This document shows positions 8,790-16,121 of a DNA stretch of 64,000 nt, in pieces. The notes beneath the pieces were generated by a model that was given only the letters and a program-made list of their open reading frames with translations, was not told the DNA's origin and searched no databases. The translations under genes and the position numbers were made by a program. Within the stretch, counting starts at the first letter, position 1; each line of letters opens with the position of its first letter. Source of the DNA: Octopus vulgaris (lineage: Eukaryota); the NCBI GenBank assembly GCA_951406725.2, contig OX597818.1, forward strand, positions 103,230,001 through 103,294,000, written 5' to 3'.

Positions 8790-9010
8790 GGACACAGGGA
8801 GTTATGTACAGGGAGGACCATTTCTGGTCAAGAGAGACTTTGAACCGAGCGGTTCTCGGCATCTTCACTATCTCGTCCGGACAGCTTATTCCACGGATCC
8901 GCAACCCGGACGGAGAAAGCTCCTCTCCTTCGATTGAGATGAAATCATCGTAGATAGAGCTTTTCGGAGTGACCCCGCAGCCCACGCTCTGGAGCAGGAG
9001 TGAAGAACAG
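8790..9010 (-). mobile_element. CR1/L2-type LINE ORF2 C-terminal fragment (frameshifted)
   Basis: Minus strand reads PAPERGLRGHSEKLYLR*FHLNRRRGAFSVRVADPWNKL/PDEIVKMPRTARFKVSLDQKW, matching the TRGH..KL...FS.RV...WN.LP..+V......FK..LD signature of CR1/L2 ends. Confidence 0.75.
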
Positions 9011-9500
9011 CTCTTTCGAGAGGTTACATTTTCCGCTTATGATGTTCTGAGCGAGAATGAGATTACCATGACGTCGTCGTTTTTCAAGAGAATAAAGGTC
9101 GAGCGTCTTCATAAGACAAATACTTCAATGAAATTAAATTCTAAACTTGAACCTTGTCAGCATCAACCATACTCTATTATTCTAACGAAGAGCATTCAGC
9201 GGTATTCTTAACCTACTCATGGAATCTGTAACCTACTCATGCAATCAACGTGATACAGAATTTGACAAACTGTATGTTTGATTAACTGGCAAGAATTTAT
9301 TTGACAGACATCTGTACGGCTTCCGTTTACGCAACTGCTCACAGAAACTATAAGTCAATGCAAAGCACTGTGTGAATTTCTAATGACGTGTGCACTTAGA
9401 AATACAACTAACATTTGCCGAAACACGTGTAAGATGACGCAATATAATAATAATTTATTACCGAATCTACAGTGTAGTCTGTTTTCATTTCCTTATCTAC
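9010..9500 (+). mobile_element. Degenerate PLE 3' end (GIY-YIG C-terminus-like + decayed hammerhead)
   Basis: KRIKVERLHKTNTSMKLNSKLE resembles the PLE C-terminus; CTAATGA...GAAACACGTGTA at 9380-9431 has a palindromic helix III. Confidence 0.4.
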
Positions 9501-9679
9501 TCTCTGATAGTTCAATGCATTGACAAGTGAAAGGAAGCTTTGAGCATGATACGCGAGATCCCTTCGAAGATTTCTTTCGTGATAAATCGATGCACAAGTA
9601 TTTCTGAATACTAGTTATATGTCATACTATTTTAACCGCTCTATGCAAACACATCTCTATAGATGGACAGGTAGATAGG

Positions 9680-9731
<52 letters not shown>

Positions 9732-10049
9732 GAAAGAGAGAGAGAGAATAAAATGTACAAAAGGACAAATTTCAGAGGTATGTCATAACTCAATTACTTT
9801 CAACACCTGTTCTATTAGGAATAAGCATAATCAATTTAATAGTTACGTAATTAAAATGCATCATTAATTGAAATTCATTTCAACTGAATTTATAAACATT
9901 CTTCATTCGAAATCATTAGGAACTCAACCAGGTATTTTGTCCTTTGCTCTTAATGACACTAGGAGCTGATTATGTGCATAATGGAGCCTTTCTCCTCAGG
10001 GTTTAATTAAATGCTATAACAAGCTTAACGATCTAAAGTCATTTAAGTT

Positions 10050-10088
<39 letters not shown>

Positions 10089-10732
10089 TAATAAATAAAA
10101 TATATGCATACATACATATATGTACGTACCTACATCTACATGTATATATATATGCATATATAAGTATATATACGTGAGTACAGGACACCACGAATAGACG
10201 TAGAACTCAAAGAGAAACGAAAACGTAAAAACAAACGTGGAAACGGACCTAAACGAAAAAAAAACAAGTACAAGACAAACTACACAAGGAAAAATCCCCT
10301 TCATCAGCTGTCCCTAGTTCAACTCCGGCGTGTTTCGAAGGTTGGACAGAACACGACTCGTGGAAACAATCCTTCCTGCGAAGGAATTAAATAAAATTAC
10401 TTCGCAGAGGGGTAAAAACAAGGAAAGTTAAACATGTGACAAAAGAAACGATATAAAATAAGATACAAAATAAAAATACCAAAAATAAAAATACAGAATA
10501 AAATTACAAGTACGAAAACTTCGGTACAAGAAATAAAACAAACAAAAAAAAACAGACAATGAGGGCCTTAATGCTGGCCTACACGAGGAAAGATTCTAAG
10601 AGCGCTAGAAGAACAGTGTTCACTGTTAGAATGCCAGCGGCGAAAGGAAGCAACTCGCCCGGCTGTGAAAGAGATGAGGAGGAGTGAGAGAGAGAGAGAG
10701 AGAGAGAGTGATAGAGGAGGACAAGCGGCTGT

Positions 10733-10778
<46 letters not shown>

Positions 10779-11562
10779 TAAGAAAGTTTGTTTGTGAAAG
10801 CACGTGGGTGAATATATAAGAAAATAGTAAAGAGTGAAAACACGACAGAAGGCTTAAATGTTAAAGAATATATATATTTGCGTCAATATTTGCGTCAATT
10901 TTCCCCTTCTTATAATGACATAATTTTATAATTTTTAAAGAAACTTTCAAAAATGAATTGGGTACAAATAATCCCTTCCTTAAGAAAATTACAATAAATA
11001 AAAAGAAAAACCAAACAACCCACGAACAACCCCCAACTATCCTCCATACACTAAAAACAGAAATCACCCACAACCAACCTTTGCAAACCACGCAAGACCT
11101 AACAGGGAACTAGCTGACAGAGGACGCGTCTATGAAAGAAATTACACCAAAAACAGAACACACCAACAACATCCTAATACCAGACCCAACCACCATACAG
11201 CACAATACGACACTAGAATAAGAAATACACCGCACACAAATCGCTACTACCCCATAAACCAAAATTACTGGTCCCCACTAAACACAAGACAAACGCAAAA
11301 AAACACTATGTCAAGTAACATCCCACATACAAGCAGTTCGAAACAAAAATATTTCCCATACAGAAATTTTACACACACCACAAACAATAACAACCATAGA
11401 TTCTCACACACACACAACGATCAGGGGCAACAATACCACCACTCCCCTGACCAAATACCACACAACCTCACAGACAACTCATACAAACAAAATTACACCC
11501 AACATTTTTTAGCCAGGGACCAGGGACACCAGGACACAGGCTGGAACCTAGTAATAAGGAAA

Positions 11563-13959
11563 AACCGAAGATAATCAATCTTTCAACCAAACCTCTTTCT
11601 AACATAAAAATTGACATCCTCGCAAAAGGGCTCAAATTTACACCAACTCCACGCAGAGCCAACCTAAATGAACTCAAGGATAATATAACAGAATTTTGCA
11701 GAAAATTAAGACTAGCAGAAGCATCAACCAGTTTCAATACTGAAGATGAATCACTAGTCAAGAACAAAAGTGAACACATCCCACACAGAGGAAGAAATAA
11801 AGATCTTGACGAATTCTGTAACCACATTGAGAACTTCCCATACTATACATAAACCATACTATACATAAACAGAAAGCTAACCCAAATTTTAACACTACAC
11901 AATGGAAAGAACTGATAGAACTTCAAAATGATGAGGATATAACCATTAAGGAAGCAGACAAGGGAAATGCAGTTGTAATAATGGATACATCATACTACAG
12001 AAATATTGTAATTTCCTTGCTTGATGACAACCTACATTATGAAAAAATTACCAACTACACCCCACAAAAAATAATGAAAACTCTATCTTCACTAATTAAA
12101 ACCCATGAAAAGGAACTAACAACCAAAGAGATTGACTTCCTAACAAACTTTAAATGCAAACCTAGCCTTTTCTATGGTCTGCCAAAAATTCATAAAAGTC
12201 AAATTATAAATGAAACCATTAAAAAATCACCAAAGACATACATACACACACCCAACCCGGGGGACCTAAAACTACGACCCATTGTAGCTGGCCCATCCTG
12301 TGAAACACACAGACTAAGTCTACTTATGGACATCCTCCTGAAACCCTTCCTTAAACATATCGATAGCCATATCAGAGATGACTTAGATATGTTAAATCAC
12401 CTTCCAAAAAGAGCCAAGGAAGAAACAATCCTGGTTTCATTTGATGTAGTCAACTTGTATACCAGTATACCTCATAATTATGGACTGGAGGCAATACAGT
12501 TCTGGTTAGACCAATTCCCGGAAGAAATACCAAAAAGGATCAGTAAAGAATTCATTACTAAGTCAATTGAATTCATCCTACACAATAACCACTTCATGTT
12601 TGACAATACATTTTACCGTCAAAAATCCGAAATTGCTATGGGTACAAGGGCAGCACCAGTCATTGCGAACTTAACAATGGGATACATGGAAATAATCATT
12701 TACCAGGAATCTTTATCAATCTTTGGAAACCCCTCTCTCAATACATAAAAGAGAACTGGAAACGATTCTTGGACGATTGTTTTATTCTCTGGAATGAAAA
12801 CACAGATAAACTCTTAAAATTTAAAAACCTATTGAACAGCATAAACCGAAATATACAGTTCAAAATGGAATACAACCAAAAGGAGCTCCCGTTCTTGGAT
12901 ATACTAATTAAAAGAATTAACCTTAAAATAGAAACAGACATTTTCTACAAAGCCACAGACGCCAAACAATACCTTCTCTTTAATTCATGCCACCCAAGAC
13001 ACATTAAAACAAACATCCCCTTCAACCTTGCAAGAAGGATATGCACAATGGTGTCAGAACAAAATACCAGGAACTTCAGACTGCAAGAACTCAAAAACAC
13101 CTTAATTGACAGACATTACCCAGCTCAACTCATAGAGGATGGGATCAGACGTGCAACAGAAATCAACATAGAAACTTTAAGAAAAGTTCAACACAACAAC
13201 ACACCTTCCCCGAAAATACTAGCTTACATATCTACATACAACCCCAGAAACAAAGAAGCTTTCACCATCATCACCCAGAATTTACCAATACTTCATATAA
13301 ACCCCAAATTAAAGGAAATTCTAAACATACACCAACTCATTAAAAGCTACAAACAGCCTAAATCACTTAAAAAGATTCTCACAAAGGCAAAATTATCTTC
13401 TGAAATTACGGATGCAAAAGTAAAAAAATGTGGTAGATCGAACTGTGCAACATGTCCTAACCTACTAGAAGGATCAGAATTCTTCTTTAAAGAGGGACAG
13501 AAATTCAAGATCAAATCTAACTTTACTTGTATCTCTGAAAACATAATTTATGTTATTAAATGCTCGGGCTGCCACCAAGACTACGTGGGGTCCACGGGAC
13601 TATCACTCAGACGTAGATGCACACTGCATCGACAACAGATTGCATTCCCAGAATATAGAATGATACCTTTTAGTGAGCACATTGAGAAATGCGCAAAGCA
13701 ACTACAACCACAATTTTTAATCTTTCCATTTTACCAATGTGCTTTCGGATCATCAACACAAATTAGACTAAACAAGGAAACATTCTTCATTGAAAAGTAC
13801 AAACCCAGACTCAACTATCCAAACATAATAATACAGAGAAATTCACACCAAGAGGAAAAGGAAAAAAAAATTTTTAAGCGATTATCTCCCTTACACCGGA
13901 AGAAATCACGCACTACCTTCCCTTATTTAGAACTCTCCGTAGCAAAAAAACAAGGATAA
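11563..13959 (+). pseudogene. PLE polyprotein (RT + CxxxxCxxC linker + GIY-YIG endonuclease), two frameshifts
   Basis: KIINLSTKPLSNIKIDILAKGLKFTPTP; IKEADKGNAVVIMD; FYGLPKIHK; LRPIV; SFDVVNLYTSIP; Q..EIAMG; WKRFLDD; TDIFYKATD; SCHP; KCGRSNCATC; NIIYVIKCSGCHQDYVGST...R...H. A 16-bp duplication (ccatactatacataaa, 11838-11869) and an indel near 12735 break the frame. Confidence 0.93.
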
Positions 13960-13986
13960 CGCTATTAAAGATAAACATTACGTCGC

Positions 13987-14025
13987 AAGAAATTTGAAGA
14001 GCTAAATGCGAAACCGGTCTTTCTT
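13987..14025 (+). ncRNA. Minimal type I hammerhead ribozyme-like motif in the PLE 3' pLTR (C3U variant)
   Basis: AAGAAA-T-TTGAAGA-GC(TAAAT)GC-GAAA-CCGG-TC^-TTTCTT; helix I 6 bp; palindromic helix III ACCGGT; predicted GUC cleavage after 14019. Confidence 0.7.
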
Positions 14026-14158
14026 TAAAAATTATAAAATTATGTCATTATAAGAAGGGGAAAAAAGTTTTTTCCAATATTCTCCAGACATATTGACGCA
14101 AATATATATATTCTTTAACATTTAAGCCTTCTGTCGTTTTTTCACTCTTTACTATTTT

Positions 14159-14210
<52 letters not shown>

Positions 14211-14975
14211 GGTAACGTATCGTCTCATTTTCCTATGAATTCGTGTGCGTAAGTGGTTATGTGTGTTTTAATTTCTTCACAAGATTTAAATTTCGAGATG
14301 CACATAGAAAAACAAACACATGCACACAAGTTTCCTTTTATATACGTGTCTTTGTGCATGCATGTGTGTGCGCGTGTGCATGCGTGTGTGTGTCTCCGCG
14401 TGCTAAGCGTGTGACATATATGATAGATCAGTGTCAAAACATTACATATGCTAAGTTATATCGCAGCTCGAATTTATAGAGATATATACTACAGGAGAGA
14501 GCGGGATAAAAACACTACATTGCTATCATAGTTACAGAGCAGATATCAGCATAATGTTCGAGAAAGGATCTCTAGCGAACTGATGCGAGAACTGTAGCTA
14601 CACAAACTCCACAGACACACACATACACCGGCATATAAAAATACATACTGAGTGAAAAATGAGGTAGGCAAGTACATACAAAGAGTTGTTGTTAGAGGTA
14701 CATATGTAGTTCATTGCCTATTTAACTCGAGATCCAGACTGTAATCAAATTCCATTTACAAGATCTATAACCTTTTAAAGAAGGAGTCGCGTTCATAGGA
14801 ACAGACATTCGTAGATGTAAAAATGATTGGGAAGGAGTGAAATAACAAGTTGCAGGCACATGGCTTCAGCTTCATTCCCTATGTTCGGTATATTATCAGC
14901 GAGACCACCGATGCCTTATGAGTGGCAGTGATTTCGGTAGTCGGAAAATGTATAAGAGACCGTATTATATATATA

Positions 14976-15245
14976 CTAGCAGTGTCACCCGGCGTTGCTC
15001 GGGTTTGTAAGGGAAATAACTATATAAGCATTTTTAGAGAGTTATAGCCAAAAAGTAGCAAAAAAAATGCATTAAATATGGAAAAAATTTACGGTAATTT
15101 TTTTTTTAAATCGTTGACTCATCGTAGACATTTTTAGAGAGTTACTTCCCTTATATAATAGAGAAAAATGCATTAAAATGGAAAAAAATGATGGTAATTT
15201 TTTTTTTAATCGTAGACTCATCGTAGATGCGCGCTAATACTTGTT
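14976..15245 (-). mobile_element. Helitron 3' terminus (non-autonomous)
   Basis: Minus strand ends in GC hairpin ACCCGAGCAACGCCGGGT, about 8 nt, then CTAG|T; internal ~100-bp duplication. Confidence 0.7.
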
Positions 15246-15759
15246 TCTGGGTTCGATACATGTGGAAAGATTTCATCCGTTCCTATGACGTTATAAACAT
15301 CTGTACTAGCAATAAACAAATTTGAATTTCAAATCGATGAATTTATGTCTCTGCAAAAGACTTCACGGCGCCTTTGTCAACAAGATTTCTAATTCAATGA
15401 GAATATATTGATAATTTGTTTGAAAATAAGCTATGAGATATACGATTGCCTTTCAACTCTATATTTGAGGTCAATGTGCGTTATTATCGGATGCTAATCA
15501 TTGCAATCAATTTTTATTGGCTGTTTTATTTTACTGCTTGTACTACGAACACAGATTCGTTATCACACACATAGAGGTACGCATGCATACACACATACAC
15601 ATCTATATATATATATATATATACATACACACATACATACACACACATACACATTTTTTCCTTTTCTTTCTTCTTTTTTTTCTCTGCCCAAAAAGGAAAA
15701 GCTCTACTTTGTAATCTGTCCCCTCTGTGTGCAGCCCTGTGTGGCAAATCAAGAAACAA

Positions 15760-15791
<32 letters not shown>

Positions 15792-15798
15792 TATATAT

Positions 15799-15843
<45 letters not shown>

Positions 15844-16121
15844 CAAACACACACAAACACGCACATGCAAACTTTAAAGGACACAAAAATGTAAGCCTAC
15901 ACACTTAACGAATTTTTTTTTCCATTTCCTTTTCCTTTTTCCTCTTTCTCTGATAAAGCTCAAATCATTCTGACGATGTTTGTTACATGGAACTAGATAA
16001 ATGCAAGTTTACTCCCAAAATGGGAAACTGAAAGATCTCTAAATGTTAATTATAATTATAATTAAACTATGACTATAAAATACCAATGATCAACATGTAA
16101 TTGTTAATTGTTGCTCCATTT

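Follow-up and report, generated by a model that had tools for sequence, protein, structure and literature searches.

An inverted, truncated arm combined with a tail on one side only is the textbook layout of Penelope-like elements (PLEs), as set out in the available sections of two accounts (PMC8557442; PMC3846280). According to the sections available of the respective papers, the role of the hammerhead ribozymes in these elements is stated to be open, in vivo evidence being absent (PMC4209133), and their function is stated to be unclear (PMC8557442); dimers of minimal PLE hammerheads are covered in the available part of a review (PMC6765202). For the Anolis PLE, the part of the study available reports that ribozyme mutants had no effect on insertion in vitro and that the cut coincided with neither end of any RNA-seq read (PMC11167929). 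A search of titles, abstract openings and passages, with subscription papers and supplements outside its scope, found no published counts of PLE breakpoints at the hammerhead cut; nor did the accounts of canonical PLEs consulted include a breakpoint census relative to the ribozyme.

The locus described here lies in a 64,000-nucleotide stretch of Octopus vulgaris DNA (the window) and, judged by its sequence, is an endonuclease-bearing (EN+) PLE inserted head-to-head in a (TA)n tract. Between the left (10736-10776) and right (14161-14207) sides of the (TA)n target, the copy comprises the PLE tail on the minus strand (10777-10818), which in full-length copies runs on into the ORF start; a minus-strand inverted arm (10819-10943) that is a copy of 14020-14160 by reverse-complement match; and a plus-strand direct arm (10944-14160) that is 5'-truncated and lacks about 790 nt from the 5' part of the element. 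The copy is frameshifted, and its closest relatives are 96-99% identical. Its broken RT/GIY-YIG ORF (11451-13959, plus strand) is spread over the overlapping frames 11451-11852, 11831-12748 and 12604-13959, in whose translation a DKG motif, a CX4CxxC linker and, at the C terminus, a GIY-YIG-like motif with internal cysteines can be read. The RVT_1 match in this ORF (E=5e-4) lies below the curated cut-off, as do both Pfam matches of the relative L187 (RVT_1, 2e-6; GIY-YIG, 0.019). The pLTRs (pseudo-LTRs) occur in tandem or inverted form with the tail at one end, which is the EN+ PLE layout, and the linker falls within the CX2-5CxxC pattern that precedes the endonuclease in Neptune and Nematis, as given in the available text of PMC8557442; domain layout and linker motif together fit a Neptune/Nematis-like element. 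In the available sections of PMC8557442 and PMC3846280, canonical EN+ PLEs of this type share with the present element an RT followed by a C-terminal GIY-YIG domain, the CX2-5CxxC linker, 5' truncation, an inverted 5'-truncated arm, a tail at one end and a microsatellite target, and no structural difference from them was apparent.

The family is large: its 3' end gave 2,603 matches. Several features of its members were noted in passing. In L187 (4652-6820), the ORF begins about 20 nt past the tail end, and an N-terminal region of several hundred residues has no Pfam match. Both arms of the inverted pairs at L061-L082 usually belong to one subfamily, with common private variants; their breaks are often no more than about 15 nt apart, and the tail is present on one arm only, which may be the long or the short one. 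One and the same inverted PLE insertion occurs four times at a spacing of about 8.9 kb in G000:C28:6388889-6417316 (L010, L027, L028), where the host region has been amplified in tandem. Outside the element, the window contains a two-copy direct repeat at 15029-15227 with a period of about 100 nt and 73-93% identity.

Hammerhead positions follow the general numbering of the ribozyme, beyond that used in the papers cited. The predicted minimal type I motif occupies 13987-14025 on the plus strand, with its scissile bond predicted after C17, between 14019 and 14020. Helix I is formed by 13987-13992 and 14020-14025, an extra unpaired U (13993) precedes the core, the core pair U3·G8 lies within 13994-14000, helix II has 2 bp, and helix III (14013-14018) is a 6-nt palindrome. 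A minimal type I descriptor, written to fit this very motif, matched once in the window (core 13994-14019) and not at all in 300 shuffles (64 kb, both strands), and by this descriptor the core boxes, the NUH triplet and helices I-III are those of a minimal type I hammerhead. Descriptor match and palindrome agree with the earlier note, which had proposed a PLE carrying a minimal hammerhead with a palindromic helix III. The 3-8 pair is not of Watson-Crick type in the window's subfamily (U3·G8), whereas sister subfamilies have U3-A8; in the copies examined, the ribozyme varies in loop II, at position 17 (C or A) and at position 8. An Rfam scan of 9000-16000 returned 27 weak matches, the hammerhead family not among them. 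The hammerhead fold (-2.6 kcal/mol) is not the minimum-energy fold (-3.5 kcal/mol), and the minimum of the dimer cofold differs from a clean hammerhead dimer; the palindromic helix III would permit a dimer. Minimal PLE hammerheads, as described in the available sections of PMC4209133, resemble the predicted motif in being of type I, in their location in the pLTR, in a small palindromic helix III and in the G10.1-C11.1 pair, and share the U3-A8 variant with the sister subfamilies; the motif of the window differs from them in its 2-bp helix II, its U3·G8 and the unpaired U before the core. U3-A8 is a natural and active covariation according to the parts available of PMC3088659 and PMC4209133, and we found no published work on C3U combined with G8A.

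The inverted arm copies the region downstream of the predicted bond: 10899-10943 matches 14020-14064 exactly in reverse complement, and 10812-10889 matches 14090-14167 at 99%. The pairing of 10943 with 14020 and the position of C14019 as the predicted scissile base, both claimed in the earlier note, are confirmed by this alignment and the descriptor, as is the coincidence of the arm's outer limit with the predicted cut. The next base, 10944, is a C and not the complement of C14019, and pairing appears to end there. However, a 4-nt microhomology is present at the inversion junction, in that 10940-10943 is also found upstream of the base matching 10944 in full-length copies (L026, L059; L086 also supports its assignment). 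Because these four bases match the element's own upstream sequence, the break can be placed anywhere in 14020-14024 and 14020 is only its outer limit, so that of the proposed exact end at the cut the limit stands and the precise position does not. At its other end the arm does not stop at 10811, as had been supposed, and runs on across the family tail as far as about 10777; internally, a 12-nt duplication of 14093-14104 (10887-10898, minus strand) takes the place of 14065-14092, accompanied by one substitution. The idea that this single copy records a cleavage event is not supported: overlaps of at least 3 nt are found at 13 of 30 inverted junctions in an unselected set (at least 1 nt at 18 of 30), the arm is visibly rearranged and the core carries U3·G8. 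Given these three features, we assign low weight to this copy, and that it was made from a cleaved template is tentatively conceivable, with the balance leaning somewhat against it.

Copies chosen without regard to the cut mostly read through it. The unselected set comprised the 30 inverted junctions from 40 loci for which the 3' end was the sole basis of selection; of its 60 arms, 53 begin upstream of the cut and 6 begin downstream of it, and the single arm scored within 2 nt of it proved to be a BLAST over-extension (+6 by anchored alignment). For the upstream pLTRs, we took the best-scoring 40 of 74 candidate copies with an ORF start, 37 of which have a direct upstream pLTR: 27 of these pass through the ribozyme, 9 end downstream of it, and one (L304) jumps internally and lands on the cut. 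Since most upstream pLTRs read through and none of the 37 starts at the cut, the cut is ruled out as the element's normal 5' end. Five of the nine short upstream pLTRs (L282, L288, L291, L297, L299) end in an A/T run at +41 to +48.

A targeted census nevertheless reveals a small excess at the predicted bond. Four genome-wide patterns, each requiring the sequence downstream of the cut and forbidding that upstream, gave 96, 17, 61 and 25 matches, and candidate arms were scored by anchored alignment against natural copies chosen by downstream sequence alone; about 35 matches of the 96-match pattern, together with apparent indel leaks of the 61-match pattern, were judged from the match text alone. 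The 97 scored rows included 26 ribozyme read-throughs, five non-element matches (L119, L160, L240, L244, L259), six ambiguous arms (L139+, L144, both L138 arms, L261, L005) and eight long-spacer arms at -9 to -3, outside the interval common to both patterns, all of which were left out. As the omitted L261 scored 0 and L139+ scored +1, this omission gave the peak no advantage. Of the 52 near-site arms, 15 break exactly at the predicted bond, compared with about 2.8 expected under a uniform spread, an approximately fivefold excess seen in three subfamilies. In the long-spacer subfamilies, whose breaks were scored across 20 positions, 7 of 35 arms are at the cut; a binomial test gives P=0.0015, and a permutation that keeps the real flanks gives a mean of 1.6 and P=0.0008. 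In the independent set of short-spacer GUC subfamilies the count is 8 of 17 across about 17 positions (P=2e-6; with p set to 0.1, P=1e-4). Counting each junction once leaves 7/31 and 7/14, respectively, and excluding simple-repeat flanks leaves 11/42. In the extra-A subfamily, the peak shifts by one base along with the predicted bond (5 at 0, 4 at -1, 1 at +1). The breakpoint histogram suggested in the earlier note thus has a divided outcome: the cut is favoured, and breaks at large are mostly scattered and upstream. Set against some 1,360 anchored arms (1,390 matches, 32 of them control), the arms ending at the cut make up at least 1.1%, perhaps 2% by our estimate after filter losses, and 98-99% do not end there.

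The partners joined at the cut vary and include genomic flank, (TA)n, inverted arms and internal jumps (L114, L128, L153, L304), and by hand-reading the junctions are mostly blunt or contain filler. Tandem duplications starting at or within 1 nt of the cut were also seen, of 13 nt in L107/L108/L139 (a sublineage of at least three loci) and of about 57 nt in L153. None of the sequencing runs found to contain the site is recorded as RNA. In four of these runs, all of them contigs, loose ends at 14020 were considered as cut ends and rejected; they are the normal upstream sequence of the extra-A subfamily, and some contigs bridge the ribozyme.

We put at roughly 0.5 the probability that the peak arises because a small minority of template RNAs is cut by the predicted hammerhead itself. 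The predominance of read-through arms, the hammerhead fold lying above the energy minimum and the Anolis results weigh against this reading. A different origin would lie in the chemistry of the junctions, given that the cut sits at a GC-to-AT boundary where microhomology or chance AT-rich matches could pile up breakpoints, the copy at 10777-14160 being a random truncation joined by 4 nt. The microhomology in that copy, the frequent short overlaps at unselected junctions and the (TA)n or homopolymer flanks on 4 of the 15 arms that end at the cut are in keeping with such an origin, which we consider improbable: in a pooled permutation with real flanks, which models chance extension without selection for microhomology, the mean was 2.6 and none of the 5,000 rounds exceeded a maximum of 11, compared with the 13 counted up to that point, and only 2 of 17 short-spacer arms break in the equally AT-rich positions +2 to +8.

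Two control windows in the ORF show no comparable peak, the most breaks at one position being 3 of 25 and 2 of 17 (in the first window 4 by hand-reading and 3 by script; script scoring of the control windows moves a few positions relative to hand-reading). A second pile-up does exist where helix I has its 5' edge, at 13987, with 8 of 27 breaks by script and 7 by hand across the family (L159, L161-L167), and it is the main evidence against a cleavage-specific interpretation. Four of these events (L161, L163, L165, L166) fit microhomology, with six or four bases in common with the element's inverted end or tail, and four hairpin junctions do not fit; this unexplained half could possibly represent an RNA start or a fold-back. 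Because the 13987 pile-up is similar and only half explained by microhomology, a structure-driven stop is a serious rival: the reverse transcriptase would tend to halt once it had copied one or the other strand of helix I, as the RNA re-anneals or the cDNA folds back, and produce the peaks at both 14020 and 13987. Peaks of similar size at the 5' edges of the two helix I strands would follow from such stops, L141 links 13987 to 14020 through helix I complementarity, and a longer helix I predicts the one-base shift in the extra-A subfamily as well. The core variant has no significant effect (13/40 arms at the cut for U3-A8 versus 2/11 for U3·G8, P=0.30), as a helix I stop would also allow, and at the present sample size core type is ruled out as a discriminator. 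We nonetheless regard stops at helix I as less likely than cleavage, since half of the 13987 events have their separate explanation in microhomology, a stem of 6-7 bp rich in A-U is weak, and the cut peak is sharpest, though not significantly, in the U3-A8 GUC copies (8/17). An RNA 5' end made by transcription start or by a nuclease and coinciding with the site is very improbable as the source of the peak; promoters lie in PLE pLTRs according to the available part of PMC6765202, and the unexplained half of the 13987 peak may reflect an end of this kind, but why the position matches the predicted bond in each of three subfamilies would then lack an explanation.

For the copy at 10777-14160, we propose a two-arm model taken from the internal initiation described for the Anolis element PAc in the available text of PMC11167929. 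Both target strands would prime reverse transcription at two internal start sites, of which one includes the tail and the other does not; one cDNA would stop in the ORF, the second would stop at the cut or no more than 4 nt from it, and the common 4 nt would join them. On an RNA cleaved by the hammerhead, the enzyme would run off the 5'-OH end and then join or jump, so that the run-off cDNA could be joined to the flank, to the other arm or to another template position. Read-through copies would have as their source either uncut RNA or templates that had been religated or jumped seamlessly, alternatives that look the same in DNA.

Element and copy are ordinary; the family-level excess is real but minor, and it makes an open question testable. 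At even odds, genomic copies would keep a countable record of cleavage in vivo, in the form of the 1-2% of arms that leave or jump at the exact bond in three subfamilies whose cores carry U3. If so, breakpoint censuses would supply the in vivo evidence for minimal PLE hammerheads that RNA-seq has not given, and ribozyme variants could be ranked by activity from DNA alone. Looking for a reproducible excess of breaks at the predicted bond is an inexpensive test, applicable to any genome with many copies, and it also bounds the effect: cleavage would be rare, or cut ends would mostly be rejoined before or during copying.

Compared with Anolis Poseidon PAc, as described in the sections available of PMC11167929, the present element is alike in its two internal start sites bracketing the tail, in the extension of both strands and in an AT-rich target. 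It differs in that the ribozyme of PAc overlaps the ORF start, whereas the ORF of the present element begins about 200 nt after the cut, and in that the DNA copies of the present family show an excess at the cut, whereas cut ends were not seen in vivo for PAc. R2 elements, which carry an HDV-like ribozyme rather than a hammerhead, are similar to the present family in that genomic 5' junctions coincide with the ribozyme cut, according to the available part of PMC3774820. In Drosophila R2, however, that same text places the cut at the element's exact 5' junction, whereas in the present family only 1-2% of arms stop there.
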